DNA from: an uncultured Candidatus Altimarinota bacterium
Lineage (GTDB): Bacteria; Patescibacteriota; Gracilibacteria; BD1-5; UBA2023
Reading direction: 5' to 3'
DNA length: 40,000 nucleotides
Assembly: GCA_936941205.1 (NCBI GenBank)
Contig: CAKZJF010000061.1
Coordinates: forward strand, 5,744-45,743
Part shown: piece after piece, positions 692 through 38,987 of the stretch
Position numbering within the stretch: position 1 is the first letter of the stretch
How the letters are laid out: every line of letters begins with the position of its first letter
The notes under the pieces: generated by a model
Told to the model about the DNA's origin: nothing
The model's input: the letters and a program-made list of their open reading frames with translations, nothing else
The model's database searches: none
Translations under genes and position numbers: made by a program

Positions 692-3600
692 TTATGCACG
701 CATTCGAATATCTTGATCATTCGCAGCTGGAGCATCAGAAACGCCAGCTATAAAAGCCTGTCGAGTCACTTGTTGTACTGTCTGGACAGATGAAACTTCT
801 TTATGTAAGAATGCTTGGTACGCATTTTCATTCGATCCATAGGTAGTATATTCTTTCGGATTATCGACCCCAAGAATATTTTCATAACTCATATCAAATC
901 AAAGATCTCGTAATTCTAGCATATACGGATGACGCATAATGGTTCGTTCATACATATCTTTCCTCTCTTCAAGGGTCGTTTTTTCAGCAGCTGTCGCACC
1001 TTTCAATTTATCTCGAAGCCATGCAACTATTTCTTTATTAATATGAGAAAATTGTCATTTTTGATACTCTGTATTTCATTGAAATGTTTCAGATTTTTTA
1101 ATACTTTCAAGGTACGGAATAACGGCAGACTTCCAAAAATATTTATAATCAGTCTCATTCATGTCACCATGCTTTGGTACTACATTGATTTTTAAATCAA
1201 GGTAATGCTTTAAGGTATGATATGTAAATCCTGTTGATGAATCAATCGGAGAGTGAGATGATATAAATTGCTCACTATGTGAATATCCCCCCATATTTCT
1301 AATAGATTCATTTGGATGGGCAGAAGAAGGAGCATATTCATGAGTACCATCGAGCTCTCGAATATAACGAGCAAATGTTGTTCGTACAATGGGGTCACGA
1401 TGTTCTTTTGACTGAATAGCAATAAGTGGATCAGAGAGTTGAAGTACTGGGTGAATTATTTTCCCATAATCTAACCAAAAATCATGGATTACTTCATAAA
1501 TATTTGGATTGTTGAGCTGTTCTGATCGATCGAGTTCAATCATTTTAAGACGAGTACGGGCCTGTTCTGGAAGTTTACCAGAATCAACTAACATATCTAC
1601 TACCGTATGAACTACTGACTGATACACTCAAGCAAGAGAATCATTACGTCAGAAAGTAAAAGCATGGTATGGATTTCACTCAGCATCGGTAAAATTCTTA
1701 AAATCATTCAATGTTTCTGGATGAGCCATTTTTGTTACATTACTCATAGACCAAACAAAGGCTGGACCCATGGAGCTTTGTCCAGGCCATTTCCCCATAG
1801 TTCCTTTTATATTTCCAAGCACCAATGACCATTCACCTGACTTAAAACGTGAAATTGTATAAATAGCACGATCCTTTGCTCCAAGTTTTTCACTCGATTC
1901 TCGTTCTCATTTTTGCTTATTTTTCTCGCGAGCCTCACGAACAGTGTTTCCAAATACCCCAGGACCACCCATGGCCTGAATATAGATATTATTCTCATGA
2001 TTAAACTTGAAAAAACGATCAAGGAGAATAATTTCATTTAACGTGTTAGAAGTTTCGGTATTTACTGCAGATTCTCTTTCTTGACAACGCTTATATTCAT
2101 AAGCAGGATCACATCAACAAGCTCGCACAATACGATCAAACCAGATATGTCCTTTTCCACTCAATTTATCAAGATTACTATCCGCATAAAGCTCACCAGT
2201 AGCTTCAAGGGTTACTAACAGTGCAGCCAATAAGTGTTCTGGTCGAGAATTGGAATTCTCTATAATATGAACAATCTCTGCTCGCATACGGGCTCATTTA
2301 AGATTTCGTATACTTCCCTTCTTTTCTTCGATTGTTTTATTTACATGCTTTGAATAATCCATCATCGCATGATTTTCCAGCATACTAAAACCAGGAATCT
2401 TGGATAATTTCTTTGACATCTTAAACATCGATTCTGCAGAGCGGAATTCAGCCCCTTCTTTCAACATATGTTCAAATGTATGAAAAATCATGCCACCTGC
2501 TTTCCAAAAATCATACGGTGTTTTCCAATTCATGACCCTTCCTAGAAAACCGCCATGCATATGAAGATGTGGTGCCTCATATTCTTTTACTGCATCCGGA
2601 TCGGAATCAAGAAGAGAAGTTAACTTATAACCACGTACCCATCTCATTAAATGACGAAAGGACTTGTCAGCATGTTTTGCATATTTCTTTGTTTTCTTAT
2701 ACTTTACTTCACCATCTTCTTTATTTTCACGTTTTACATCTGAAACGGGTTCAAGAATATTTACTGTATTTAATCCAGTAATTTCAACTTTAATAATGGC
2801 ACCATTGGCATTTTTAAATCCAAATATTGGACTTTTTGAACCATCTCACTGTTGCATTTGAAAGCTATTTTCATGAATACTAAGTCCAGGTTCAGAGAAT
2901 GCTTCTAGAAATGAATCCCCATCATGAATCGGTTTCATTCGTGCAAATGTCTCATGTTCTGCTCGAATTCATTCAATAAAACCAGTGAATGGAATATTTG
3001 GATATATTGTTCCGTCTTCTGATTGAAGAGAGATAATTTGTTCTGTATAGTTTATGCTATCCACTTTTAAAATATCATATTCATCTTCTTCTCAAAACTG
3101 AAAATACGTTCCAACCTCAAATGCAATATCACGATGTGATGGATCAAGTGAATCAATTCTTGCTTGAAATGCCTCTGGATTCGAAAGTTCTGGCTCAGGT
3201 GATATCTCTGGAATACGATTGGTTAATTTCATATGCTCAAAAGCTGCCTCATCCAATATGGTTACTTTTCCTCATCGAGACGTATAGGTTTGAAATTCTT
3301 TTACAAGATCAGCATACAAAAGTTCTTCTGGCGGAAGTTGTGGAGCTCAGATTTGTCATCCAGTATAAGAAATACTTGAAACCTGAATATGTTTAATCGT
3401 TTCAGGAGGATTCATAGTATCTACCCCCATAATCTTCATAAAAAACTTTCAGCCCTGGGGGGTTTCATAACAAATAATTCCCCCTCTTTCAAAGTTTTCT
3501 AATCCTTTTATGAGACATCCTTGTCATGAAGGATCTTTCAGAGTTTCACGAATATATGCGTTAAATTGTGAAAAATCTTCAATATCAGGAGGATTCTCAT

Positions 3601-4612
3601 CTTGATTCCCTCCTCGTAATGATTGAAATCATTCATACAATGCTGCATTCAGATCTTCCTTAAAAGAAATAAAGAAATCATCTACCAAAGTATCGAGAAA
3701 ATCAGTGGAATCAGTACGAATAAAGAATTCTGGATTCCCATCTAATAAACTGGATATAAAACGGTCAAGTTCCTCATGGCTTGAGAATACAGATTCATCT
3801 ACTCCTCAAAAATCAGCATCAATTCGTTGAATAATAAGAATTTTTGCTCTCTCAATATCAAGAAAATTATGCTCTATCAAAAATCCAATAGAAACACGGG
3901 GAAGAAGTTCTTGTATGAGGAATTTTTGCTTTTCTCTACTTGAAGTATCAAGAAGACTTAATAAAAAAGAACAATCATCCTCTGTTACTACTCAAGTAAC
4001 TTGAACTTGACGCATAAGACTATGAAATCTATCCAATAAAACAGGATGAATAGAATCTGAAAATCAAAGATGCTCAATAATCCCTGCAATATCACGAGGA
4101 GCAATGCCTCTATCAATTCACAAAACAAATTCACGACGAATATGTATTTTTCTATTATACATCTTCAGTTGCTCAAAGGATAACGTTTTAATGCTTGAAA
4201 GAATAGAATTCTTTTGGGTAGCATCTAATACAAATTCCTTTTGTATAACATGTTCTAATGCCATTCGCTCATTATTAATCTGCAAACCTGCTTGAAAAAT
4301 CATATTTCGAATTCGCTCATTTGAAAACAATGAAGTATCATCGAAAATTCCTGATGGTATAGATATAAAGTCGTTCGTACTTCCAACCGCCTGTTTTTGA
4401 GCAAGAAATTGAGAAGCAAGATTTCTGACATGTAAAATTCCATCTTTTCAGAGAGCTTTATCATAAAATTCTGTAGCCTGATGAGAACAGATAGCAGTAT
4501 CAATCAGTTCAGTAAGGAGTTGATGAGCGGTAGCAAGTGCATCTTTTGAATTCCCCTGAGTTCACTGTTCATTAATCGCTGCATCTCACTGTGTGTGAAT
4601 TCATGTATCCAT
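692..4612 (-). CDS. large hypothetical protein (1306 aa), no signal peptide, no family recognised
   Basis: Track pieces 692-892, 1076-1627, 2294-2647 and 4118-4330 share one minus frame. I checked by hand that no TAA/TAG occurs in that frame between 692 and 4612, only TGA. First ATG at 4612, with an upstream in-frame TAA at 4628-4630. Stop TAA is at 692-694, directly abutting the yraN stop. Confidence 0.75.
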
Positions 4613-12891: not shown

Positions 12892-13815
12892 ATGAGAACA
12901 TCAAAAATTTTTGTCGGTTTTGCGACAATAACACTTTTAGTAACAACAATGTCTATCTATTCAGCTTCTGCCGCAATGTGAAATGGAAGTAATCATGGAC
13001 AAGGAAGAATGTGATGAAACTATGGAAGCGAGAATACAACACGAATGACCCATAATGAATCGCTTGCACTCAGTGGAATTACAACAGCTCCTCTCTCAAA
13101 TCAAGAAAAGCTCGATCTAGCCTATCAATATAGTGAAGAAATGGTAGCACGTGATACATATAACTACTTCTATTCCCTCTATAAGTTACCAACATTTCAA
13201 AATATTGCTGCCTCTGAACAAGAACATATGAACGCTGTAAAAACACTTCTTGAACGATATTCATTGCTAATTCCAACTGGATATGGTGAACTTACAACAA
13301 CATTTACATCACTCAAAGCAGAATGAGAAAAATGAGTCAAAGAAGCGCTCGAGGTTGGAATTAAAATAGAGATGCTTGATATCAAGGATATCATTGATAC
13401 GATAAAAACAACGGATAATGATGATATAAAAATCGTACTGACAAATATCTGAGGAGCATCCTATAATCATATGCGAGGATTCTTGCAAGGTCTTACAAAC
13501 AACGGATTCACAACTTCAATTAATTACAGTGAATATCTTAATCAAACAGATCTTAACTCACGTTGAAGCCTTCAGTCCAAACTCTCTGAGAAACTCGTTG
13601 CTGAAAAAGTAGTTCTCCCAACTCAAACAAAGAAATGATATAAACAAGATACTCAATGAAACTATGGAAAGAAAATGGAAAAGATGCCAAATTCACAACT
13701 ATCACCATCTACAATAAACGAAGATAAGGTACAACCGTTCATTCCTGAAATAAAAGAACAAAAGATACCTTGGTATATGAGCATAAAAGAATACATAAAT
13801 AGTTTCTTCAGATAA
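12892..13815 (+). CDS. secreted DUF2202 (ferritin-like) domain protein
   Basis: 307 aa with a signal peptide ending SASAAM. EEMVARDTYNYFYSLY...FQNIAASEQEHMNAVKTLLERY...ALEVGIKIEMLDIKD...TNI-TGA-GASYNHMRGF matches the DUF2202 pattern as I recall it. TAA 13813-13815. Confidence 0.7.
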
Positions 13816-13822
13816 CGTGCTC

Positions 13823-13859
13823 AATAGAAATAAAACGTAAATAACGTTTTATTTCTATT
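13823..13859 (+). terminator. intrinsic terminator
   Basis: 16-bp stem aatagaaataaaacgt / acgttttatttctatt with a 5-nt loop. Confidence 0.65.
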
Positions 13860-13906
13860 TATTAATTTTTTAGTTATATTCTAATATATAATAGAATTCA
13901 CTTCAT

Positions 13907-14806
13907 ATGAAAAACTACAAAAACATTCACTCCATTGATAGAAGCATTAGAATGATATTATCAGTTTCTCTTTTTATTATTGGATTCTTCTGGTTCTCAG
14001 GAAATATCAATCTCATATTACTTACCATAAGTATTCTACTCGCAATAACGGGAATACTCGGCTTCTGCCCTCCATATTTGCTCTTTGGAATAAATTGATA
14101 TAGCAAGGATAACCGCATTTCAAAACTTTTTTTGGGGATTTTTACTATTATTTTTCTCATTGTTGGTATTGGATGAAGTTATGCAAGTATATTCTTTACT
14201 AAAAAATTCTTTCTCGAAGACTATAATAGAATGAATAACTATTATAAACAAACACTCTTTAATACCGGAAAAGAGAAGCGAGCTGAATCTATCATGAATT
14301 ACGACCTCCTAATTGCTGAATATCATATCTTTCTAGCCAAATACAACACATATCAACCATACTCTCTTCGATGAGATAAGGAATTTAGAAATGATCTCAA
14401 TAAGATATCATCCATAATTCATACACTCAAAGAAAAAACATATACTGGTAATCTCAAGGAAGCACATCTTGAACTTGAAAAAGTTCGTCCAATTTTTCAA
14501 GATATTCTTAAAAGAAATAATTTTTCACTTCTTGCTATTTCTCTTGTAGATTTTCATGATGTCATGGAAACCGTTATTGAAGCAGCGGATACAAAAGATG
14601 TATCCTGAGTAGCAAAGGCATATCTTATAGCTGACGAGAAACTCAAAATTATCGAAGATATAACAAATGATGATGAAATCCAGGCAATTCGAAAAAATCT
14701 CAATGATGTAAAAACTTTTGCAGAACAAAATAAATTAGAAACCCTGTCGACGAAGGCAGCTGAACTCAAAAGTAGTTTTGTGAAGGTATACCTTAAAAGA
14801 GGGTAA
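13907..14806 (+). CDS. DUF2892 (YgaP-like) membrane domain fused to a ~200-aa helical domain of unknown function
   Basis: 299 aa. The N-terminus IHSIDRSIRMILSVSLFIIGFFWF...ITGILGFCPPYLLFGI fits the DUF2892 pattern. Reads on through TGA 14096-14098 to TAA 14804-14806. Confidence 0.6.
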
Positions 14807-14838
14807 CAAAAAAATATTATTTATAACCATTATTCACT

Positions 14839-15336
14839 ATGAAAACTTTATCTGTATCTCTATTGGTAATCAGTAGCTTATTTCTAACTTCTTGTGGTAG
14901 CACAGAAAATACTACCCAAACTGATTCTGCTCAATCAAATTCTTCCATATCAGCCCAACCCGAAAGAAAAGTCGATATTTACGGGAAGATTACTTCCATA
15001 GAATGAAATGAAATCACTTTATTACAAGTAGATACCTCAAAAGATCCTACATTCACTATGACACCGGAAGCAAAGAAAAAATATATGCAAGCAATGGACG
15101 AAGCAGCAAGAATGGCTCTGAAAGAACAAATTAATTCTGCCACGCTCTGAGAAATAAAGATTATTATTCCGGTAGGAATTCCCATGATTAAGAAAACAGC
15201 TCAATGAACAGATGCACCAACTGTAGATGCAAGTTTAGCGGATTTAAAAAACGGCCAATATATTTCAATCTGGACCTCACAAGATATAAAGGAAAATAAA
15301 GGAGTAGAATTTGTAAAAATCGCTTTTATGCAATAG
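14839..15336 (+). CDS. lipoprotein upstream of the efflux genes
   Basis: 165 aa. MKTLSVSLLVISSLFLTSC has a lipobox (LFLTS-C). TAG at 15334-15336. Three in-frame TGA. Confidence 0.6.
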
Positions 15337-15377: not shown

Positions 15378-17372
15378 ATGTCACTCATACAAGAAGTAGA
15401 AAAACAAACAAGCTTTCCTTGGATAAAAAAAATTCTCATTTTTTCAATCTTGTCTGGAATATGATATATTGGATATTCTTACTATCTCAATAGTGAGAAT
15501 ACGGAACCTTCTGGAGAACAAAAAATATATCTGGTCAGTTCTTGAAATCTCATAACATCCATAGAGTCAGACGGAAAGATTACTCTGAAAGATGAATTGA
15601 ATCTAGACTTTGTAAATCCCTGAATAGTAAAAAATATTTTAAAAAAGGAATGAGATGTTGTAAAGGCCTGAGAAGTAATAGCATCACTTGATCCAACCTA
15701 TCTTGATATCGCTATAGATAAAGCACAAATTGCATTAAAAATTGCAGAGGCAAATTATAATCTCAAAAAAAGAGGATGAACCCAAGATGAGATTAGCATT
15801 TCTCAAAAACAACTTGAATCCAGTGAGGCGTCATATAATTCAACTCTTTCACAGACAGAGATGGATATAAAACTGGCTGAAGATAATTTAAAAATTACTT
15901 GAGATAATCTTGAAAACACAAAAAAACAAACAGAAATAAATACATTGACGGCGCAAAACAATCTAGATACTCTATTACTTGATCTTGAATCTGCAGAAAA
16001 AAATGTGAAGTTAATTACTACACAGGAAGAAGAAAAATATAAAAATATGCAAAATAAACTTATTATGGAAGTATGACAAATGATTACTGCTATAGAAAAA
16101 AATTTATTTGATATTGATATATTCCTCTGAATAACTGAATCAAATAAATACGCAAATGATATGTATGAAGTATATATTGGTGCTAAAAATACTGCCGTAA
16201 AGATACAGGCTGATAATAGTTTCCATGATGCTGAAAAAGGTTTTTCTACTTTTTATCAAGAATGGAAAATCTTTAAACAAGGAACAGATATGAGTCAACT
16301 AGAGATACTAGCATGACGATTAAAAGATATAAGCTCGCTTACAAACAAAAGTCTCTCTTATACAATCGATACTATAAAAAATTCGGTGCCATCAAACTGA
16401 TTTCCTCAGAGTTCACTTGATAGTATGCTCACGAATTTTGAAAATGCACTCACAAATCTTAAAAATGAAGCTTCTTCTTTTGCTATAACAATACAATCCA
16501 CACAAGAAGCAAAAACAGCAAAAGATATAAAGATTACAACTGCTTGAGACAGTATAATAAGCTTAAAACAGAAAATAAAAATATGAAAAGCATCTCTCGA
16601 AAAAACAATTCTAGAGAATGGAGTTTCGATACAATTAGCAACGCAAAAACGTGATCAAGCGAAAATGTCTATGGAAAATGCATTTATAAAAAAAGACACC
16701 TCTCTTACAAAAGAACAAACACAAATAGCTATATCCAAGAGTGTACTAAACGGAAAACAAGGAACAGATTCTTATGAATTAGAACCATTCTATATGGCAA
16801 TACTGAGTGCAAAAAAGAATTTGGAAGAAGCACAATTGAAAAAAAATGACTCTCAACTAAGAAGTCCTATCGATGGAAAAATAGTAAATATATCTTGAGA
16901 TATCTGAGAAACAACGAGCTCTCTTAAAGAATCATTTGTAACTATTATCAACAATGAGACATATTTTGTAGAGTCACAAGTAGAAGAGGAAGATATTACG
17001 AAAGTAAAAGTTGGACAAAAAGCATACATATCTTTTGATGCTGTCGAATGACTCAATATTTCATGAGAAGTAATCTACGTAAATGACAAAGCAACGATTG
17101 ATAGTAATGGTGTAGTAAGTTATAAAACACAAATAATTTTCTCTTCTCAAGATTCACGAATTCGTGAAGGTATGAGCGCAACTATTCAATTTATAACAAA
17201 AGAAGTTTCCAATGTACTTACTATACCCGTACAGTCAGTGAAAACAATAAATAAAAAGCCCTCTGTCCTTCTTGAAGATGGTACATATCAAACTGTTATT
17301 ACAGGCTTTACGGACTGAAAAATGGTAGAGGTGGTCTCGGGAATTAAAAAATGAGATAAAGTGATGTATTAA
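15378..17372 (+). CDS. HlyD/MacA-family membrane-fusion (periplasmic adaptor) protein, unusually long (664 aa)
   Basis: N-terminal TM helix, then a lipoyl-like half (GDVVKAGEVIASLD). A coiled-coil region of about 350 aa follows. Second half is LRSPIDGKIVNIS, then beta-barrel/MP-domain-like sequence (VKVGQKAYISFDA...GEVIYV...IREGMSATIQF). Track ORF 16665-16898 is in the same frame. Confidence 0.8.
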
Positions 17373-17384
17373 CTGTACTAAATT

Positions 17385-18089
17385 ATGAAAGATACCATTA
17401 TACAACTTGAAGATGTAAGAAAATCGTACTATCTAACAAATAAGGTTGAAATTCCAGTATTAAAATGAATTCGTCTTTCCATACAAAAGGGAGAATTTGT
17501 AGCTCTTATGGGAGAATCTTGAAGTGGAAAATCCACATTATTAAATATAATATGATGCCTCCATTGAGTTTCATCTGGCAAATATATTTTTGAATGAGAA
17601 GATATTTCTTTTTTACAAAATGATGATATGCTTTCTTTTATTCGAAATAGAAAGATGGGGTTTATTTTCCAGCAATTTCATCTCATCCCTAAGCTCACAG
17701 CAATAGAAAATGTTATGTTACCAGGATTATATCTCAATATGAGTCAAGACGAGAAACGAGAGAGAGCACAGATGCTTCTTTGAAAAGTTTGATTACTCGA
17801 TAAAATAGCAAATAGACCGGGCGAATTATCCGGATGACAACAACAAAGAGTGAGTATTGCAAGAAGTCTCATGAATAACCCTGAAATTCTCTTGGCGGAT
17901 GAACCTACGTGAGCACTTGACTCAGAAACCTCAACAGAAGTTATGAAGATAATGACAGATCTAAAAAAGGATGGTAAAACCATCATAATGGTAACCCATA
18001 CGCCACTAGTAGCTCGATTTGCTGATAGAATTATATTTCTTAAAGATGGAAAAGTCGAAGACTGCAATCATATACTTAAAGACATCTAA
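17385..18089 (+). CDS. ABC transporter ATP-binding protein, MacB/LolD type
   Basis: 234 aa with 9 in-frame TGA. Walker A GES-TGA-SGKST, Q-loop FIFQQF, signature LSG-TGA-QQQRVSIAR, Walker B LLADEPT-TGA-ALD, H-loop VTHT. Confidence 0.92.
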
Positions 18090-18107
18090 TATTAATTTGA
18101 ATTCAAT

Positions 18108-19289
18108 ATGCAAATCTTACAAATGGCAATGAAGTCACTGTATAATAATAAAATTCGAACTTTTTTGAGTTCACTCTGAGTTATAATATGAGTAGCAACT
18201 ATTGTATTGGTCATAGCCATTTGACTCGGTGCTCAAAAAAAAATAGAAGAACAATATGCAAATCTTGCGGTTACTTCAATTCTCATTAATCCAGTAACAA
18301 GCCCTACACAAAAAACAAAACTCTCCAAGGAAGATAGTACTATTTTACAAACGAATTCTCAATATATTGAGAGTGTTACTGCTATATTACAAGGAAAGAT
18401 GATATCAGTAAGTGATCTCACGTCAGCCTCAACAACAATTCTCTGAGTAGAAAAGGAATTTCTTCATATCTCAAAATTATTACTTGAAAAAGGAATATTT
18501 TTTGAAGATATTGACCTCCTCGGAAAGCCAAAATTTGCAATACTTGGAAATGGTGCAGCGATTGAATTTTTTTGAAGTTCAGATAAGGCATTGGGGCAAA
18601 CTATAAATATTGGAAAAAAGAAACTAGATATTATTGGGGTTTTTAAGAAATCTTGAAGTTCTATTGGTCCTATTACCTATGATGATTCAATATATTTACC
18701 CTACCTTACAGCTCAATCAATTATTTGAGATTGAGCAAGTCCAAGAATTATTGCACTTGCTCAGGATGTAAATAGCATAAATATGGCTATTACTGAAATT
18801 TGAGATATTCTTAAAATAGCCCATAAACTCAAATCAACTCAAAGTGAAGATTTTCGTGTAGTCGATCAATGATCCAAAGTAATAGCAGCTCAAGAATCTG
18901 CATCCACCATGACTCTGTTACTTACTGGGGTTGCTATTATTGTATTGGTAGTATCTGGAATAGGTATTATGAATGTTATGTTTGCTGGAGTAGCTGAAAG
19001 AATAAAAGAAATAGGAATTCTCCGAGCCATCGGAATTAAAACAAAAGATATTTTAAATATTTTCCTTCTCGAAGCTATCATACTTTCTATAGGTTGATGA
19101 ATAATCGGGGTAATTCTTTGAGATATCTGCATACCATTAATTGCTTATTTTGACTTAATTGAAGTATTACCAAGTATAACATGACGAATTGGAGCATTTA
19201 GTTTTGCCGTATTTGTATGAATATTTTTTTGATACTACCCAGCATACAAAGCATCAAAAATGGATCCAGTTGATGCTCTCAGGAGCTAA
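18108..19289 (+). CDS. ABC transporter permease, MacB/FtsX family
   Basis: 393 aa. N-terminal TM helix ([18 protein letters not shown]), a large extracytoplasmic domain, and C-terminal FtsX helices ([26 protein letters not shown]...[17 protein letters not shown]). Track ORF 18909-19097 is in the same frame. Confidence 0.9.
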
Positions 19290-25695: not shown

Positions 25696-26031
25696 CTACT
25701 TTCGAGGCATTCCATAGTAATCAAATCCTTTTGCATCAGTCATTGAGTGGGTGATATAATTTTTCTTTTTTCCTTTTTTAAAAAAACCTCGTTCATCTAT
25801 TATTCCCATTTCAATAAGTGTTTTGATTTCTTTTGTTGGAAGCTTCTTTTTTGGAAATGCTTCTTTATTTTGCATGTATCGAGTTCTTTTTTTATAACTG
25901 AGATTTGCGCGAGACTGTTTATTTTCATTTCACGTATAAACAAGCGCTTGTTTTTTCTTACCTTTAGCAAGTTTACGAGCTGCTGCTTGTTTTTTTACGA
26001 GTCGAGATGAAAGTCAGTGAGAATTGGCCAT
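25696..26031 (-). CDS. small, very basic hypothetical protein (111 aa, Lys/Arg-rich)
   Basis: ATG 26031, TAG 25696-25698, two in-frame TGA. The hairpin aatgcct/aggcatt plus T-run overlaps the stop. Confidence 0.4.
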
Positions 26032-26039
26032 GTATATAT

Positions 26040-26234
26040 TTATTGATGCTCAGAAGTGAATTGAATTGAAGTGTGAACTCGTCGGTTCATTATCTCTGTA
26101 ATTCAACGGGTAGCTTCTTGATATGAAACAGATGGTATATTAAGCGGAAAGGGTATTTTCTTTATTTCGCCAGGAGAAGAAAAAACTCTATTTCCTGTAG
26201 GAAGTCATGAAAATGCACGATCTACAAAACCCAT
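26040..26234 (-). CDS. hypothetical small protein (64 aa), weak call
   Basis: ATG 26234 lies 14 nt downstream of the tRNA(UCA) gene. TAA at 26040-26042. Two in-frame TGA. No family recognised. Confidence 0.25.
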
Positions 26235-26247
26235 ATTTAAAACAAAA

Positions 26248-26326
26248 TGGAGCGGGGGACCGGGTTCGAACCGACACACCCAAGGGTTGAAGCCTTAGTA
26301 CACTCACTCTTTTATGTTACCCCCGC
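26248..26326 (-). tRNA. tRNA with anticodon UCA (reads UGA) and glycine identity elements: tRNA-Gly(UCA)
   Basis: Reverse complement is GCGGGGG-TA-ACAT-AAAAGAGTGA-GTGT-AC-TAAGG-CTTCAAC-CCTTG-GGTGT-GTCGG-TTCGAAC-CCGGT-CCCCCGC-T-CCA. The 7-nt loop is C-T-TCA-A-C. G1:C72, C2:G71, G3:C70, discriminator U73 and C35 are all present. Confidence 0.85.
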
Positions 26327-26435
26327 AAAAGAAATAAGCACAATATGAATGCGCAGGCATTGTATAAAAACTCCAAAAAATGTCAAAAAAAATAGATTTT
26401 CTGGAAAAAACTCTTTTTCTCTATACACTTGACTT

Positions 26436-28127
26436 ATGCAATCGAATCTCATAAAAATCATAGAAGAAGTTCTCTTTTCTCTCGAGCTTGATAGCTCTAT
26501 TGTTTCAAAAGATGATTTTCATAAGTTTAAAAATCAAATATTTTCAAAATATAAAATTCCATATGGGATATCTGGGATAGATTTTATAGAACGGTATCGA
26601 GGACTTATAAAAGAGGGAAAGCTCCCGGAAAATATTCGAATATGGAAACTTCTCAGAAAACGAGCTGTTCGATCTCTTTCAGGAGTGTCTGTTATATCAC
26701 TTCTTACAAAATTCTGGTGATGCCCTGGAAAATGTATATATTGTCCAACCTATGAAAATCTTCCAAAAAGCTATATCACGAATGAGCCAGCAGTCATGAG
26801 GGCTGAATTGAATGAATTTAATAGTGTAAAACAAGTTCAAAATAGACTCAGATCACTTGAACTTACATGACATACTATAGAAAAATGTGATGTACGAATT
26901 ATAGGCGGGACTTGGAGTGTATATCCGAAAGAATACAAAGATGCATTTATTCGAGATATTTACGATGCACATACTACATTTGAAGCATTGACTCCTTTTA
27001 TAGAAAATGTCGAAGTTGGCGAAGATACTTTTGCACGATTTAAGGTTCGTGAGGGATATAAAATGCAACAATCCAAAACATTAGAAGAAGCACAAGAAAG
27101 GAATCAATCAGCAAAATCTCGTGTAATATGAATGGCAATTGAAACTCGACCTGACTGGATAAATCTTTCAGAGATTGTCGAACTTCGCCACTATTGAGTT
27201 ACTCGTGTCGAAATAGGATATCAAACTACCATCGATTCAATTAACGAACTCAATAAACGTGGCCATGGAAATAAAGAATCTATTGAAGCAACTCGGCTTT
27301 TAAAAGATGCAGGATTCAAGGTGGTGGCTCATATTATGCCGAATTTAGTATGATCAACACCTGAACTTGATAAAGAAAGTCTTGCTCGAGTATTTTCTGA
27401 TAGTAGTTTCCGTCCTGACGAACTCAAACTCTATCCAATGGTAGTTACGCCAAATTCAGAACTTACAGAAATATGGAAAAATGGGTGATATACTCCCTAT
27501 AATGATGAAACACTTATTACTCTCATGGCAGAACTTCAATCATATATACCTGAATATGTTCGACTCAACCGAATGTACCGTGATATTCCAGCAAATGAAA
27601 TACTCGCTGGATCGAAGCTCGCCAACCTTCGCCAAGTAACTGACGAACGAATGGCGAAGTTATGAGTGTACCGAAAAGATATTTCTGCTCGTGAAATTCG
27701 TGCAAAATGAAATAAACCAGAAAATGCTATCCTTGATGAGAATTTTTATGAGGCAAGTGGCTGACATGAATATTTTCTTCAATTTATTGATGACGAAGAT
27801 AGAACCGTATTTTCACTTCTCCGCCTTCGAGTACCTTCTCAATATTTTACAAAAGAAAAACATCCAATGGATGTACTCCAAAATGCCGCTATTATCCGAG
27901 AAGTTCATACATTTTGAGATCAATTACCAATTGGTTCAAAGGCTGATGGAACATGACAACATATGGGATTTGGGAAACGACTTATTGAGCGGGCTGAAAC
28001 CATTATTCGAGAAAAATATCCCACCATTGAGAAGATTGCAGTGATATCAGGAATATGAGTTCGTGGGTATTATGAAAAACGTTGATATCAAAAAGAAGGT
28101 GACTACATGATACGGTATATCCAATAA
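26436..28127 (+). CDS. elp3: bacterial Elp3 homologue (radical SAM + GNAT acetyltransferase; tRNA U34 carboxymethylation family)
   Basis: 563 aa. Radical-SAM cluster motif FW-TGA-CPGKCIYCP. ...RIIGGTWS..., IETRPDWI, RVEIGYQTT..., then a C-terminal GNAT part (...IREVHTFGDQLPIG...HMGFGKRLIERAE...). Track ORFs 26436-26720 and 27691-28044 lie in and near it. TAA at 28125-28127. Confidence 0.88.
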
Positions 28128-31018: not shown

Positions 31019-32542
31019 TTATCAACGATAGCTAATAGCTTCGGCAATATGAGGTAAGAGGATATGTTCACTTGCATCAAGATCAGCAATAGTTCGAGCA
31101 AGTCGTAAAATTCGGAAATAGACTCGAGTGGAAAGTCATAGCCGATTTATGGCATCCTGAAGAAATTTCTCTCCATCATCACCCAGTATACAATATGTTT
31201 CAATTTCTGCATTACTCATTTCTGCATTATAGGTTCTATTCGTATTTATAAATCTCTGTAACTGAATTGTACGCGCTCATAAAATTTTTTCTTGCATATA
31301 GACTCGAGTATGAATCGATGCTTTATTCTTATATTTCTCAAAATCTTCTGGTTTTACCCGGGGAACTCGAATCATGATATCAATACGATCTAGCATAGGT
31401 CATGAGAGCTTTGATTTGTATCGTTCAATTTGAGATTGAGAACATGTACAACTCTTTTCCTTATCTCATAAATATCAACAAGGACAGGGATTTAAAGCTC
31501 AAATAAGCATAAATTTCGCAGGATATCGACAACTCGCATGAACACGATTAATGGTAATAACTCCATCTTCAAGTGGTTGTCTCAAGGTTTCCAGAACATT
31601 CTTATCAAATTCAAGAAATTCATCGAGAAATAAAACTCATTTATGTGCTAATGATATTTCGCCAGGACGTGAATCTCGGCCTCATCCAATTATAGAAGCT
31701 TCGCTTGCAGTATGATGAATGCTTCGAAATGGTCGATCTATTATAAGTGGCTGAGTCCTAGAAAGAAGTCCCGCAACCGAATAAATTCCTGACACCTCTA
31801 TGATTTCATCGAGACTCATTGGGGGGAGTAATGATGCTAATCATTTTGCAAGCATCGTTTTTCAGGATCCTGGTGGTCACTCGAGAAGAATATTATGTCC
31901 ACCAGAAGCTGCAATAAGTATTGATCTTTTTGCATGCTCTTGTCCTATAATACTTTCTATATCGACTCATATTTCTTTTTTACGAGAAAATTGTTCAAAA
32001 GAAGTAACGGAAGAAGCAGGAATAGGAATTTCTCATACCAGAATAGAAATTGTTTCCTGTAGACTCTCAACTGGAATAATATGAACATCGGGGACAATGC
32101 CAGCCTCTATGCTTGCATCTTTAGGAAGAAAAATGTACTTTATTTTATTTTCTCGTGCAAAAAGTACACTTGGAAGGATTCCATCAATAGAGCGAATCTT
32201 TCCATTTAACGCAAGTTCTCAAATAAATATACTCTCTTTAAAAAATTCTTTTTTAAAGAGAAATTCATGCGAGAGAATGCCAAGAGCAATAGGAAGATCA
32301 AAGCTTGGTCATTTTTTTCGGACATCTGCTGGAGCCAAATTCACTGTAATCCTTTTTGATCCTGGAAAAGTAAATCCAGCATTTTTAATAGCACTTCGAA
32401 CTCGTTCTCTACTTTCCTGAACAGCCATATCTCAGAGTCCAACAATAGTAAATGCTGACAGACCTGTAGCCACATCAACCTCTACAGAAACAGGAACTCC
32501 AGAAAGACCTGTAACCGATACTGAATGAATACACTCAACCAT
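31019..32542 (-). CDS. comM: YifB/ComM family Mg-chelatase-like AAA+ ATPase
   Basis: 507 aa. N-terminal Lon-protease-like domain (VEVDV..GL..FTIVGL-G-D.AV.ES.ERV). Walker A LLE-G-PPGSGKTMLA, Walker B GVLFLDEF. Zn-finger-like NPCPC-G-YLG. C-terminal LS.R...[11 protein letters not shown]. Invisible in the standard track, where only antisense ORFs 31800-32084 and 32097-32420 appear. Confidence 0.9.
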
Positions 32543-32630
32543 GTTGGAAAAATATTTTATTTACTATAGTGATTTTCATGCGGTTGTAAAACAAAAAACT
32601 GAATGAATAATTGCGAAATAGGGAAACTTC

Positions 32631-32639
32631 TGTTACAAT
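32631..32639 (+). promoter_or_regulatory. candidate extended -10 (TGTTACAAT) only 8 nt before ATG 32648
   Basis: tgttacaat at 32631-32639 in the 105-bp divergent region between comM and the coupling-protein gene. It would give a leaderless or near-leaderless mRNA. Confidence 0.3.
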
Positions 32640-32647
32640 TTTTGCAT

Positions 32648-35600
32648 ATGAAAAAGTTTTTCTTTTCCAACATACGAACTTCCATTCTTCTTTGGATATT
32701 TTTTTCGGTTTCTTGATATCATAGGCTTGTTATGGCAATACGCCGTGAACCTATTGTTGCCAATGAAAAACCGAAAGTTTCTACCCCATCATCGGATGGG
32801 TGGGATACAGTAGTAGGATGGTGGAATACAGGTATTTCCTGGATTGCATATACCATTCTTGGGGTTATTATATTCTATATAATCGTCAAGGTACTTCGTA
32901 TTGTCTATGAAATATCTACCACCAAAAACCTCGTATATCTCCAAGTCACTTTACCAAGAGCTGACTCAAAACTCGATAAAGAAAAAGAGACAAAGAAGGA
33001 TTTTAAAGAAAAAGTTGGTATCATGAGTGTATTTTACAAAAGTATACACAAGATGACTGAAACAAGTTTTGTGGAAACTTTCATGAACTTTATCTTTCGG
33101 CACGCGAAAATTTCACTTGAATTTTTTTATAATGAATGACTCGTGAGCTTTTATTGTGTAGCTTATAAACAACATACCTCTCTTATTATTCAGCAAATTA
33201 CTTCAAATTATCCAGATGCGGAAGTAAGAGAAGTAAAAGAAGCAGATCTCCCGAACATTAAACCCGATGGATATACACTCCGTATTTCATCAGTTAATAA
33301 AGATCATGATGATGTATACCCTATTAAAACTTACAAATATTTTGAAGATGATCCACTTTCAACTTTTACCAATAATTTTTGATCACTCGGAAAAGAAGAT
33401 AAAGCAGTGGTACAATTTGTCATGAAACCACTCGGTTCAGCATGGAATAAAAAAGCAAAAGAAGCTGCGAGTGCCGTGGCAAAATGAGAATATAAAAAAT
33501 GAATGAAGCTTGGGGTAATTGGAACTCTATTTAGTTGAATTGTTGCACCATTCTCATGGTTTGCATATCGATTTATTAAAAATGAAGCCGATCCATCTTC
33601 AGGAAGTAATGCTCCTGGAGCAAGTGGTGGAGATGCTTATAAAATATTTAATCAAGCGGAACAAGAAGCTCATAAAATGGTCGGTGAAAGTGCCGGACAG
33701 CCTGGATTTGAATGTTCTATCCGTATTCTTGTTTCTTCTCAAACCAGAGAAAGTGCGAGTAACGGTGTTAAAAATCTTATTGCAGCTACTTCAATATTTA
33801 CAGATGAATATAATAATAAGCTTGATAATAGTCAGTGGTGGGACGATATATTTCGGTTTATATCAGCTCCAATAGGATATTTTGAATACCATAATTGTCT
33901 TTCAAATATCATATGGTGACAAAGTAGATTCTCATGTGATGAACTCTCTACGATGTATCATTTTCCAGATATTAATTATAATAAATCTCCGGTTATTAAG
34001 TGGCTTGACTATAAAATGCTTCCAACTCCCTCAAATTTGAAATTTCCAAAAGATCCAACTCTTTTGAGTGATTATAAACGAGATAAGGATGGAAATATCC
34101 TATCAAATGATGGTTCACATCTAAAAGTGGATAAAAATAAGAATCTATTTCGAGATAGCGAGAAACAACTTGAAATGATTGATGGAACAAAAATTCCTGT
34201 CTATGCAGATGGTGATAATAAAGGAAAACCGATTGATGAATGAAAAACTCCAATTCAAGAAACACAACACAGAAAACTCGCTGGATTTCCACTCTATAAA
34301 GATGCTGTACTTATGGGATGGAATGTATATAGAAATATGCAGACTCCAATTTATTTTTCCCGAAAAGATCGTGGTCGTCATCATTATATTATAGGAAAAT
34401 CCGGGTGAGGAAAGTCAGTATTTATCAGTTATATTGCTCGACAAGATCTCTGGAATGGTGACGGACTCTGTGTGATTGATCCCCATGGTGATCTGGTAGA
34501 TGATGTAGTTGCGTTTACTCCGAAAGAACGCGCAAAAGATATGATTATTTTTGATCCTGCAGATTGGGAAAGGCCAATGGGGTTAAATATGCTTGATATT
34601 ATTGCAACTGATCCAAATCTAAAATCGATCGAAAAAGATAGAGCTGCACTGGATGCAACATCGATTTTCATCAAAATGTACGGAGATGAAATCTTTGGAC
34701 CCCGTATTCAGCATTATTTCAGAAATGGTTGTCTTAGTCTCATGGATGATGAGGAGGAGGGAGGAACCCTTATTGATGTTCCACGCCTTTTTACTGATGA
34801 GGCCTTCATGAAATATAAAACATCAAAGATTAAGAATGTCATGGTGAAGGCATTTTGGGAACATGAATATGCACAAACTGGGGATCGTGAGAAACAGGAA
34901 ATGATTCCATTCTTCTCTGCAAAATTCGGTCCATTCATTACAAATACGACGATGCGAAACATCATCGGTCAAACCAAAAGTGCTTTCAATCTTCGAAAAG
35001 TTATGGATGATCAAAAGGTTCTCATGGTGAAGCTTTCTAAGGGTATGATCGGTGATCTGAATGCTCAACTCCTTGGTCTTATTATGGTCTCAAAAATCAA
35101 TATGGCTGCTATGTCTCGTGCAGATACTCCAGAAGATCAAAGAAAAGACTTCTTCCTTTATGTGGATGAATTTCAAAATTTTGCAACTGATACATTCGGA
35201 GAAATCTTGTCAGAAGCACGTAAATACCACTTAGCACTTATTATGGCCCACCAGTTTATTGCGCAGATTGGAGGGAGTGGTGCAAAAAAATGAGATAAGC
35301 CATCTATCAAAGATGCTGTATTTGGAAATGCAGGTACTATCATGTCGTTTAAGGTAGGTGCAGAGGATGCAGAATATCTCGAAAAGGAATATGCCCCACT
35401 TCTATCACAGCAAGACATTATTGGTATTGCAAATTTTACAGCATATTGCAAACTCAATATAGATAATGCAACGACTCGTCCATTTGATATGAAAACTATC
35501 TGGGATAATACCTATAAAAATCCAGAAGTTTCAAAAATTATTACTGAATATTCTCGAAAGATGTATGGTCGAAAAAAAGAATATGTTGATATGGAAATTG

Positions 35601-35653
35601 AGGCACGTATGGGTATCCTTTCAGAGGAAGATAAAACTCAAGAAAACCAATAA
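32648..35653 (+). CDS. type IV secretion coupling-protein-like ATPase (VirD4/TraG/TraD family) with a ~560-aa N-terminal membrane-anchored extension
   Basis: 1001 aa. Six track pieces (32732-33139, 33143-33382, 33677-33919, 33953-34243, 34472-35293, 35342-35653) share one frame. Walker A IIGKSG-TGA-GKSVF, then CVIDPHGDL, Walker B FFLYVDEFQNF, ARKYHLALIMAHQ. Two TM helices in the N-terminal part. Alternative starts at 32603 or 32732. Confidence 0.85.
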
Positions 35654-35757
35654 AATACATCTTGTAAAGGGGAAAGTATTATAAATATAGATTGATATTT
35701 GTATTCTCTCTTAGTATGGAGTACAATAGTTATAAGAATTACTATTTATATATTCTT

Positions 35758-36975
35758 ATGAAGACTTTCTTTCGTTTTATTGGAAAACTGACTCTAATCG
35801 GATTCATTCTGATTGATGGAATTATTATTGGTAATGCATTGTGAGTATTTGCTACCATGGGAATTCACCTTGATTCTATCAGTGAGATGATTACTCATTA
35901 TGGTTTTCTTATTGGAATCCTTATATATGGGCAAATCATTTTTTGATTTGGACTCATCCAGACTATCTATATCAACCCAATACGGCAACTTCGTAAAGAG
36001 ATTGCGCTCTTTCTTACGGGAGCAAAAGATGAAAGCAATCTATCGATAACAGGGCTCAATGAAGATGCAAATTTTATTACCAATTTCTTCAATAAAAGTC
36101 TTCAAATTCTTCGAAATTTTAAAGATGAAATGAAGGCAGGACGAGTACTTCGTTCTGAAGTAGAACTTGCTGCTGAAATACAACGAGCAGTGCTTGATAA
36201 GGAACATCCACCTATTCCATCACTTGAGTTTGCTGCAAATGCAAAAAGTGCTACGGAAGTAGGAGGAGATAGTTTTGATTTTATTGAACGCTGAGAAAAT
36301 CATTATATCTATCTTGGTGATGTAACTGGACATGGTGTCGCTTCTGGTTTTGTAATGATGATGGTAAATGCACTCATATCAGGATTTTCTCTGAAAGAAA
36401 TTAATAGTGCTACAATTCTTGCAAATACCAATACGATTCTTAAGCCCCGTGTAAAACAAAATATGATGATGACCTGTCTCATGCTTCGATGGAATGAGAC
36501 AGAAAAAAAACTCTATATGGCAGGAGCATGACATGAATATCTTATTGTTTATAAAGCAAATGGTGAAATCTTAAAAATCAAGTCTGGATGAGTTGCTTTA
36601 TGAATGATTAAAGATATTACAAAATCACTCCAAGAACAACAAATACAACTTGATCCTGATGATATTATCGTTATGTATACGGATGGGATTAGTGAAGCAA
36701 GACTCAATTCAAAACAAGATGGAATTCTCTTTGGAATCGATCGAATTATTGATTCTATCGAAAAAACAGAAGTACGTACAGCACAAAATGTATTTAATAA
36801 TATCACGATTGAGCTTTCACGATTTATGGGATATAATCATATCCAATTTGATGATATCACCCTTATAGTACTTCGATACAAAAGGCCGGATGAGGATCCA
36901 AAAGTGAGTGAACCACTCCATCCTGAAAACATTACCGAATGGTCATGGAATACAAGTACTGTCATTTCACGATAA
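35758..36975 (+). CDS. membrane-anchored PP2C-family (SpoIIE/RsbU-like) serine/threonine phosphatase
   Basis: 405 aa. Two or three N-terminal TM helices and a HAMP-like linker. PPM motifs AAEIQ..., EVGGDSFDF, YLGDVTGHGVASGFVM, MYTDGISEA, DDITLIVL. Track ORF 36604-36975 is in the same frame. Confidence 0.85.
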
Positions 36976-36991
36976 GAATCCTTTTTAATTT

Positions 36992-38956
36992 ATGCCTTCA
37001 ATACCTACTATACAAGAACTCGTTGCTCAGAATTATTCATGAGATGCGAGTGGATTCGAAACAAATATATCTCTTCCAAAAGAAAAAATTGAGAAGGATA
37101 TTTCAGAGGGATCAGTTAATCAAGGGAACAGAGAAACGCCTCCACAAATTGAGAAAATTCTACCAGAGATGAATATTCCAAAACTTGGAGAAACGGATGA
37201 TAAAAAAATGACAAAAGAAGAAGCTGAAGAATACAAACAAGCTGAGAGAGAATATAAAGAGGCTCTTGCATTTGTAAAAGATATGATTGCACCAGCCATG
37301 ATTCGTATTGATTCAACGAAGCTTCAAATTGGTGATACCTTTGTTCGAAGTGTTTTTGTCTATGCATATCCTGATATTTTGGAAGGTAACTGGCTCTCTC
37401 CTCTTATTAACTGGGATGTAAAATTTGATATGTCTTTTTTTATCTATCCAGTTGATTCAGGAAGAGTGATGAAGTACTTACGAAAAAGACTTACACAACT
37501 CCGTGCACAATATTCAATCAATCAAGAAAAAGGACTTATTGCTGATCCTCATCTTGAAGCACAGCTTCAAGATGTAGAAGAACTTCAGCAAAGTCTTACA
37601 CGCTGACAGGAACGGTATTTTCATCTCTCTATCTATATTACTATATATGCAGAAACAGAAGATGAAATGAAGAAACTTTCGAATGCCATGGAAGTAATGC
37701 TTTCATGACGAAATGTACTTACGAAACAAACATTTCTTCGTTCAGAACAAGGATTTTTGGCAACTGGTCCATTTGCAAGAGATGAAGTAGGAGTATATAG
37801 AAACATATCAACTCGAGGACTTTCAACCACTTTTCCATTCAGTTCAAATTCCCTTTCTCAGGATGATGGAATTCTCTATGGAATTAATACCCACAATAAT
37901 TCACTTATCATATTTGATCGATTTCGAACAGAAAATGCAAATATGTGTGTATTTGCGAAATCAGGATGAGGAAAGTCTTTCTGAGTAAAACTTGAAATTC
38001 TCCGTTCGCTTATGGTTTGAACTGATGTTATTGTACTTGATCCTGAAAATGAGTATAAATCATTGGTAGATACTGTCTGAGGAACCTATCTCAATATAAA
38101 TCTCAATTCCAAAGAACGACTCAATCCATTTGATCTTCCAAGAGCACTCAAAGATACGAAAGTTCAACCCGGAGATCTCCTTCGATGAGCAATCGTAAAT
38201 ATGATAGGTCTTATGAATCTTATGCTTGGAAAACTCACTCCATCAGAAGAGGCTATCCTTGAAAAGGCACTTATCACAACCTATTCCCTCAAAGGGATCA
38301 CTATGACTGATGATAGTATCGATGGGAAAGAGGTTCCTCTTTTGAAAGATCTCTATTCAGTACTTGAAACCATGGAATGAGGAAAAACCCTTACAGAACG
38401 TATGGATAAATACGTGTATGGTGTTTTCTCTGGTATATTTTCAGAACCAACGAATGTAGATATGAAAGATGGTCTCGTCGTATTCTCAGTACGTGATCTC
38501 GATGAGATCCTTCGACCAATTGCCATGTATATCATTCTCAACTATGTATGGACCACCGCTCGTTCGAGTGAAAAAAGAAGAATGCTGGTAGTAGATGAGG
38601 CCTGGAATATTATGCAATATGAAGATAGTGCAAAATTTCTATTTGGATTGGTAAAACGTGCTCGTAAATATGGACTTGGAGTAACTACCATAACGCAAGA
38701 TGTGGAAGATTTCATGACCAATCAATATGGAAAGGCTATTGTAACCAACTCTTCCATACAACTTCTTCTCAAACAATCACCCGCCTCTATAGATGTACTA
38801 CAGAATATATTTAAGCTTACGGAGCAAGAGAAATATATCCTCCTCAATGCCTCTGTTGGTACTGGACTGTTTTTTGCAGGGACAGAACATGTTGGTATTC
38901 AAATACTTGCAAGTTACTTTGAAGAAAAAATTATTACCACAAAACCAAATGTTTAA
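36992..38956 (+). CDS. VirB4/TraC/TrbE-like type IV secretion ATPase
   Basis: 654 aa with 9 in-frame TGA. Track pieces 37169-37606, 37757-37969 and 38402-38956 share a frame. ...IQIGDTFVRSVFVYAYP..., Walker A VFAKSG-TGA-GKSF, DPENEY, Walker B MLVVDEAW, RKYGLGVTTITQ. Starts 16 nt after the phosphatase stop. Confidence 0.85.
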
Positions 38957-38958
38957 AA

Positions 38959-38980
38959 AAATCCCGATGATTCGGGATTT
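38959..38980. terminator. bidirectional terminator between the virB4-like gene and ddl
   Basis: 9-bp stem aaatcccga / tcgggattt with a 4-nt loop and A/T tracts on both sides. Confidence 0.8.
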
Positions 38981-38987
38981 TTTATTA

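Follow-up and report, generated by a model that had tools for sequence, protein, structure and literature searches.

What kind of system is built around two ATPases of the T4SS (type IV secretion system) class and a membrane phosphatase when no relaxase is encoded beside them? The question is raised by a locus at 31-39 kb of a 40,000-nt stretch of DNA from an uncultured Candidatus Altimarinota bacterium of the Gracilibacteria, tiny and dependent on a host (contig CAKZJF010000061.1, positions 5,744 to 45,743 of the forward strand), the whole of which is referred to as the window. In this locus comM is divergent from three plus-strand genes, designated A, B and C, predicted to encode a membrane-anchored T4SS ATPase, a PP2C phosphatase and a VirB4 ATPase (Table 1). 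It is considered rather probable that, taken jointly, these are the motor parts of a chromosomal, relaxase-less T4SS of the Patescibacteria type, with a PP2C switch, in a Gracilibacterium using genetic code 25. C would be the VirB4 motor, co-transcribed with the membrane PP2C B, and A would be a second, very highly conserved motor of the T4SS.

Proteins, genetic code and transcription signals of the locus

Translated with table 25 (UGA = Gly), as were all window proteins, C was matched by the NCBIfam equivalog NF045971 for VirB4 of the CD1110 family at 345.2 bits (cutoff 325, residues 80-636) and by the VirB4 model of the Mycoplasma integrative and conjugative element (ICE) at 248 bits. The Pfam families matched were P-loop_TraG and AAA_10, and the PDB matches included VirB4 (4ag5, E 1.3e-45) and TrwK (1e-5). 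The best models by profile match were of MPF-FATA/ICE types, and these scores identify C as a bona fide VirB4 of the monoderm conjugation type.

Protein B was matched by Pfam SpoIIE (PF07228) at 139.5 bits (cutoff 25, E 2e-40), and two N-terminal transmembrane (TM) helices were predicted by hydropathy, followed by a HAMP-like linker. The metal-binding motifs GGDSxD, GDVTGHG, TDGI and DDIT were invariant among 20 homologues at 47-65% identity, and the phosphatase is active-looking by these motifs. Its nearest relatives were SiaA (NCBIfam) and PDB entry 6k4e. The C-terminal ITEWxW tail could be a docking peptide.

The P-loop domain of A was matched by Pfam T4SS-DNA_transf at 42.4 bits (gathering score 20.1). 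Among 34 diverse members of the A family, TraG-D_C was matched in all 34, TrwB_AAD_bind in 31, T4SS-DNA_transf in 19 and the VirB4-type P-loop_TraG in one; the best PDB sequence matches of the family were TrwB (3e-6) and DotL (5e-4). By these matches the ATPase domain belongs to the type IV coupling protein (T4CP) class, but A is no canonical VirD4: about 500 aa of DUF8128 separate its TM helices from the ATPase, a layout other than that of a canonical T4CP, and against the curated T4CP equivalogs of NCBIfam its score (SXT_TraD, 32.5 bits) was far under the cutoff of 366.

The structure of A was modelled with AlphaFold through an 86%-identical homologue, P0001. The ATPase half was unfolded in a first AF2 model built from 29 sequences; a second model, built from a 96-sequence alignment, was better (mean predicted local distance difference test score, pLDDT, 68; N-terminal domain 80-91), with the all-alpha region still poor. 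In Foldseek searches with either model the top 13-14 matches were TrwK/VirB4 of plasmid R388, which in the better model aligned over their full length (~850-1050 columns, E 2e-7 to 1e-5); T4CPs ranked next, over ~300-390 columns only (Cagbeta 3.6e-4, DotL 2.8e-3, TrwB 1.4e-2). It is owing to the intervening DUF8128 that the whole of A matches VirB4 (TrwK) best. When the A and VirB4 families were compared by hhalign, a collinear match ran from the N-terminal domain's end into Walker A, with a probability of 50%. Together these comparisons suggest that the N-terminal domain of A is homologous to that of VirB4.

Just past the membrane anchor, A carries the charged motif LPRADSKLDKEKETKKDFKEK, which was invariant or nearly so in three alignments (numbered A1, A2 and A7), was partly kept from Gracilibacteria to Peregrinibacteria, and had low pLDDT in both P0001 models. 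At 50% identity the A family comprised 20,207 clusters at E<=1e-3 and 5,193 clusters at E<=1e-30, most of them ~800-860 aa long with both parts matched; identity within Gracilibacteria was 60-86%. No mention of DUF8128 was found in the literature searched. In three genomes a second, more divergent A paralogue was seen ~8 kb upstream of the main copy (L018 6-1844, L022 1430-3859, L029 82-2001), and divergent A-like genes stood close to VirB4 in two others (L162, L145).

Under the bacterial table 11 the 31-39 kb region falls into short open reading frames (ORFs). With UGA read through, the residues contained in ORFs of >=150 aa numbered 18,194 over the whole window, compared with 2,186 under table 11. 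Compared with orthologues free of in-frame UGA, the UGA codons of A aligned with Gly; at none of them did Trp form the majority. There is also a tRNA gene with anticodon UCA in the window, labelled SeC by ARAGORN, with an Rfam score that is that of an ordinary tRNA and not of tRNA-Sec. Its acceptor stem (G1-C2-G3, U73) we take to be of Gly type by the identity rules, and the gene presumably provides the tRNA that reads UGA as Gly in genetic code 25. UGA was read as Gly because of the alignment of the A codons together with this tRNA. The tRNA gene overlaps a spurious mechanical ORF (25747-26298, plus strand) and the 5' end of a radical-SAM ORF (26247-28127). Many database homologues (alignments A2, A4 and A7) carry Trp in place of Gly, as in a Walker A reading GKSGWGKS, evidently because table 4 and not table 25 had been used to call them; such translations degrade database annotation and may have harmed structure prediction as well.

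The spacer between comM and A contains a sigma-70-like pair, TTGTAA-N16-AATAAT, that recurred in 14 of the 25 distinct orthologous spacers (in shuffles 0.45 on average, 3 at most), an enrichment that is somewhat optimistic because the pattern was taken from the spacer alignment itself. The pair overlaps the ATG at 32603, and the ATG at 32648 is therefore favoured as the start of A. Downstream of C, between it and the convergent ddl, lies a hairpin with a 12-bp stem and A and U tracts on either side (dG -15.5 kcal/mol, z -4.27; 0/200 shuffles equally stable), which was detected by folding and was absent from the output of a simple terminator scan. The same scan, which thus missed this hairpin, gave no terminator-like site on the plus strand between A, B and C. 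The conserved promoter 5' of A, the 16-nt gap between B and C and the strong terminator are together the operon signals of the locus, and B and C are predicted from them to be co-transcribed.

Most of the original prediction for these genes was borne out. The divergence of comM from A over 105 bp agreed with the table-25 ORFs and a promoter-like pair was found there; the three-gene plus-strand unit, its 16-nt gap and its terminator were recovered; B and C proved to have the membrane PP2C and VirB4-like character ascribed to them; and in profile searches both ATPases fell into T4SS families, not into generic FtsK/HerA clades. The description of A as VirD4-like stands for its ATPase, which lies in T4CP Pfam families, and has to be amended for the DUF8128 domain, which by Foldseek is VirB4-like.

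Gene neighbourhoods in related genomes

Conservation of the gene order was surveyed in 80 species loci collected through A and 80 metagenome loci collected through VirB4, by tblastn with code 25 and ORF clustering; the VirB4-side loci all use code 25. Of the 56 loci with enough upstream sequence, 48 (86%) had a same-strand PP2C gene directly upstream of VirB4. The pair was flanked in at least four ways: by A, by radA-rpmE, by ssb (>=8 loci) or by ftsA-ftsZ with nusA and rplK (~23 loci). ORFs found upstream of VirB4 genes without PP2C (families d87, d60 and d97) look like spurious antisense translations and were discarded. In bits per residue, conservation was ~1.5-1.6 for A and C (like trxB), ~1.2 for comM and ~0.85 for B.

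The full block, with trxB-bPH-tsaB-comM divergent from A-B-C, was restricted to the closest clade (A >= ~71% identical). In intermediate loci (L013, L039, L053, L096-L099) comM is divergent from a series A - pilin protein - radA - (rpmE) - B - C, and their radA passes NCBIfam TIGR00416. A second clade retains comM divergent from A-pilin, with B-C not within 10 kb; in one of its genomes a single 920-kb contig holds A and, ~60 kb away, B-C divergent from ssb. In most other Gracilibacteria A is followed by two triple-pilin genes and a single-pilin gene, and in Peregrinibacteria it stands among cell-wall genes and ybaB. In a series of standard-code Peregrinibacteria loci (L059-L079) the proteins upstream of A were a DPBB lytic-transglycosylase-like protein and a peptidoglycan-binding protein, with YbaB and YceG downstream; a VirB1-like association with wall remodelling is possible there.

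The pilin family that follows A (c1) was present in 37 loci. Its proteins (~320 aa) consist of three tandem VirB2-like T4SS_pilin units with six TM helices; the three PF18895 repeats were matched at E 6e-23, and the cutoff of the NCBIfam model for the Mycoplasma-ICE Mbov_0395 pilin-like protein was exceeded. Often two c1 genes stand in tandem right after A, with a single-unit pilin (c4, ~144 aa) behind them. As VirB6 is reported to be undetectable in Gracilibacteria, these polytopic pilin fusions might substitute for it.

The survey thus indicates that PP2C-VirB4 is a conserved unit and that A goes with pilin-like genes; judged from these neighbourhoods, the A-B-C trio brings together, in one lineage, two modules that otherwise stand apart. 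In the lineage of the window the two would have become adjacent, the intervening pilin gene and radA having either been lost or never been inserted. The rest of the apparatus, pilin and radA being missing between the modules, is expected elsewhere in the genome.

Neither a relaxase nor an integrase was found among the annotated window genes, and hidden Markov models of pilin families c1 and c4, of family c17 and of RadA had no match in the window, in agreement with the absence of relaxase, pilin and mobile-element genes noted originally. Mobile-element genes were found neither in the window nor in the annotated flanks of related loci, relaxase genes not in related loci, and VirB3/VirB6/VirB8-type partners neither in the window nor within 10 kb in related loci. 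The module is flanked by annotated ddl, tsaB, a bPH-domain protein gene and trxB, and its G+C content (0.34-0.37) is the same as that of the remaining window. As originally proposed, it is no obvious conjugative element; the locus is chromosomal and vertically inherited. The suggested synteny of VirD4-PP2C-VirB4 held for the PP2C-VirB4 pair, the full trio being confined to the closest clade, and the proposed link to recombination genes recurs and remains plausible, with comM by A, ssb by PP2C-VirB4 and radA inside the intermediate loci. What has to be given up is the description of the module as minimal or stripped-down, in view of the VirB2-like pilin genes that follow A in relatives.

Features of the locus and the remaining window

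The coordinates of the features are collected in Table 1. The product of comM was matched by Pfam ChlI, Mg_chelatase and Mg_chelatase_C (E 1e-89) and by NCBIfam TIGR00368 (YifB/ComM) at 585 bits (cutoff 362).

Table 1. Features of the A-B-C locus and related loci (window coordinates unless a locus is named)
Feature	Position	Strand	Remarks
tRNA, anticodon UCA	26248-26326	-	ARAGORN label SeC; Rfam score of ordinary tRNA; encoded CCA
comM	31019-32542	-	507 aa; YifB/ComM-family Mg-chelatase-like AAA+ ATPase; divergent from A
comM-A divergent spacer	32543-32647	.	105 bp
Sigma-70-like pair TTGTAA-N16-AATAAT	32584-32611	+	promoter scan of comM-A spacer
A, membrane-anchored T4SS ATPase (predicted)	32648-35653	+	1001 aa; two N-terminal TM helices
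A, DUF8128 domain (~aa 75-545)	32870-34282	+	database label PF26449/DUF8128
A, charged motif LPRADSKLDKEKETKKDFKEK (aa 102-122)	32951-33013	+	just past membrane anchor
A, coupling-protein-class P-loop domain (~aa 560-930)	34325-35437	+	Pfam T4CP families
A, Walker A GKSGGGKS	34394-34417	+	sequence
A, Walker B FLYVDE	35153-35170	+	sequence
B, HAMP-like PP2C (SpoIIE-family) Ser/Thr phosphatase (predicted)	35758-36975	+	alternative starts 35716, 35692
B, PP2C domain	36301-36879	+	PF07228/SpoIIE
B, ITEWxW C-terminal tail	36928-36945	+	invariant, 20 homologues
B-C spacer (operon junction)	36976-36991	+	16 nt, from sequence
C, VirB4 ATPase, monoderm (CD1110/CTn2-like) type (predicted)	36992-38956	+	654 aa; no TM helix
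C, Walker A KSGGGKS	37958-37978	+	sequence
C, Walker B LVVDEAW	38585-38605	+	sequence
Bidirectional intrinsic terminator hairpin (predicted)	38956-38983	.	between C and convergent ddl; folding
c1 pilin genes, examples	L013 10190-11143; L031 13120-14079; L039 12937-13908
Loci with full block, examples	L001, L004-L011, L014, L019, L034, L087-L090, L095, L102

Elsewhere in the window, a 1306-aa ORF containing 26 UGA codons, for which Pfam gave no match, was observed at 692-4612 (minus strand). Genes for an HlyD-like membrane-fusion protein, an ABC ATPase and an FtsX-type permease stand in series at 15378-19289 (plus strand), a MacAB-like efflux/export set that is preceded by small secreted or lipoprotein-like ORFs (12892-15336).

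Known systems, rival explanations and implications

Relaxase-less chromosomal T4SSs have been described in Patescibacteria (PMC12102498, PMC10633639, PMC12857230) and reviewed as newcomers to the superfamily (PMC12857230), by which the original view, that the architecture is not recognisable as a described system, is not supported. That of Southlakia is essential, with pilins present and no recognisable relaxase (Wang et al. 2023, PMC10633639). In a survey of the Patescibacteria by Quinonero-Coronel et al. (2025), VirB4 was nested in the monoderm MPF-FATA class, T4SS components were dispersed in Gracilibacteria with VirB6 undetected, and coupling-protein homologues near virB4 numbered only 148/5,713 (PMC12102498). 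The present locus has in common with the systems of Southlakia epibionticum/Nanosynbacter a VirB4 of probable monoderm-conjugation ancestry, a chromosomal position and the lack of a relaxase; VirB2-like pilins (PF18895) are also common to both, here beside A in relatives and not in the window, and dispersal of components is equally on record there for Gracilibacteria. The coupling-protein homologue of Southlakia is not essential, and in Patescibacteria T4SSs such homologues are usually far from virB4.

What distinguishes the present locus and its relatives is the PP2C, the DUF8128 domain and the triple-pilin fusions, which do not figure in descriptions of Patescibacteria T4SSs. The word 'phosphatase' has no occurrence in PMC12102498, PMC10633639 or PMC12857230, and in the literature searched no paper was found that links VirB4 with SpoIIE/PP2C, or any PP2C with a T4SS. 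Entries for SpoIIE, SSB, Mg_chelatase or DUF8128 are absent from the available part of the survey's supplement (PMC12102498), and the Vampirococcus genome paper does not mention T4SS. The PP2C partner of VirB4, the hybrid DUF8128 coupling-type ATPase family and the fused triple-pilin proteins thus appear to be undescribed features. The repeated occurrence of comM, ssb or radA beside such genes also seems to be new.

With the conjugative T4SSs of the MPF-FATA class (CTn2 CD1110; Mycoplasma ICE Mbov_0395/0397) the locus and its relatives share VirB4 and pilin-repeat models passed above cutoff; unlike them it has no relaxase or mobile element, is conserved like core genes, has a PP2C partner, and has a second ATPase with an extra domain of ~500 aa. 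Compared with VirD4, TrwB, TraG, DotL and Cagbeta, A has N-terminal TM helices and an ATPase domain of the same Pfam families, its best T4CP matches by sequence and fold being TrwB, DotL and Cagbeta; it differs from them in its DUF8128 and in lacking a relaxase partner. The phosphatase invites comparison with PpkA/PppA-Fha1 of the type VI secretion system, with SiaA/SiaB/SiaC and with RsbU/SpoIIE, all of which have a PP2C phosphatase; SiaA is like B in its membrane-HAMP-PP2C layout and supplies B's best model and structure matches, but unlike in those phospho-switches no kinase, FHA or STAS/SiaC-like partner was seen near B.

By analogy with PpkA/PppA-Fha1 and SiaA/SiaB/SiaC, we infer that the PP2C would be a post-translational switch of the T4SS. 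Through its TM/HAMP module B would sense a signal of the membrane or of cell contact; it would then dephosphorylate Ser/Thr on a component of the T4SS or on a partner-switch protein, which would license VirB4-dependent assembly or transport, with A powering the handling of substrate or of pilin-like subunits. Since comM, ssb and radA recur as neighbours, single-stranded DNA (ssDNA) is a serious candidate for the substrate.

Several observations weigh against such a PP2C-switched T4SS. The window has no pilin, VirB3 or VirB6 candidate. A and C are far apart in most lineages, and we infer their functional coupling from shared T4SS ancestry only. The equation of DUF8128 with the VirB4 N-terminal domain draws on Foldseek with a medium-confidence model and TM-scores of just 0.2-0.3; as the hhalign match shrank to the Walker A region when a more diverse A profile was used, homology of the two N-terminal domains is not established at the sequence level. 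PP2C is absent beside VirB4 in 8/56 loci, and one PP2C homologue (L086) has no adjacent VirB4. The annotated genes of the window contain no kinase, FHA, STAS, SiaC-like protein or other evident partner for PP2C, and the conserved neighbours of related loci likewise include no cognate kinase or STAS/FHA/SiaC-like substrate gene. An '...NYTGD' motif in the VirB4 N-terminal region was considered as a PP2C target and rejected because it occurs also in loci without PP2C and its Thr is not conserved. The PP2C homologue of L086 (4551-9182; 53% identity) is preceded by small genes, including one for a phage SU10_adaptor-like protein.

Some of these points would be expected if PP2C were a neighbour of VirB4 through genome compaction only and regulated, for example, cell division, like SpoIIE, or a stress pathway that works by partner switching. 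The usual targets of SpoIIE-family phosphatases are STAS or partner-switch proteins; in ~23 loci ftsA-ftsZ lies divergent from the pair, the VirB4 motif provided no T4SS-specific phospho-target, and a homologue stands without VirB4. This explanation is nevertheless thought unlikely, since same-strand adjacency is kept in 86% of loci while the A, radA, ssb and ftsAZ context changes, and since B and C have a 16-nt gap and a terminator in common. It is very unlikely that the locus is what remains of an integrated conjugative element, or a module of anti-phage defence on HerA/FtsK-like ATPases: the best VirB4 models do come from ICEs (CTn2 CD1110, Mycoplasma ICE) and PADLOC gave weak matches to mad8 (39 and 71 bits), DndH and HerA, but scores of 39-71 bits, set beside 345 bits to VirB4, show no more than a common P-loop, and the PP2C had no PADLOC match. 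There is no relaxase, integrase or compositional shift, and the genes are near-universal, among the most conserved of the class, vertically conserved and syntenic with core genes across dozens of species. Both forms were rejected on G+C content, gene content and PADLOC scores.

A possible, though doubtful, rival explanation, which takes up the original inference on imported DNA, is that the T4SS ATPases import host ssDNA without a relaxase, with ComM, SSB and RadA processing it for recombination and PP2C gating uptake. Relaxase-less T4SS relatives that import DNA are known in ComB and Ced. Like H. pylori ComB and Sulfolobales Ced, the present system has a VirB4-family motor, VirB2-like subunits, no relaxase and a recombination-gene neighbourhood; ComB has no coupling protein, the resemblance to CedB/CedD is at P-loop level only, with scores far under the cutoffs (55 vs 700), and DNA import is here a hypothesis. 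It is favoured by comM divergent from A in 24/80 species loci, by ssb divergent from PP2C-VirB4 and by radA between the pilin gene and PP2C in the intermediates, which parallel the comF, recG and radA found near T4SS genes in the class ABY1 (PMC12102498). This linkage is partial, however, the pair standing instead beside ftsA-ftsZ, nusA and rplK in ~23 loci; as core genes, comM, ssb and radA are found clustered with informational genes when genomes are reduced, and the enrichment was noticed post hoc and judged without a genome-wide baseline. In Southlakia, moreover, the T4SS is essential and ComEC is not, and protein export or another role was favoured (PMC12857230, PMC10633639). In its most specific form, a phosphorylation-gated, relaxase-independent import of host ssDNA in Gracilibacteria via PP2C-VirB4, the DUF8128 ATPase and fused VirB2-like proteins, with hand-over to SSB, RadA and ComM, the hypothesis is improbable. 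If true, it would mean that DNA is acquired by a route separate from ComEC-dependent transformation, and that Ser/Thr dephosphorylation controls a T4SS, the first such case known.

The interpretation of the locus as the motor parts of a PP2C-switched T4SS bears on the Patescibacteria, a large part of bacterial diversity, whose sole genetically tractable member depends on the T4SS for its life with the host. A conserved phosphatase gene before virB4 is a concrete regulatory handle on that T4SS and hints at an on/off switch, and the comM, ssb and radA neighbours are a hint at its substrate. A family of more than 5,000 clusters in which a VirB4-like N-terminal domain appears joined to a coupling-protein ATPase bears on the divergence of the T4SS motors, and suggests that the thousands of "T4CP homologues" counted in Patescibacteria genomes are not ordinary VirD4.

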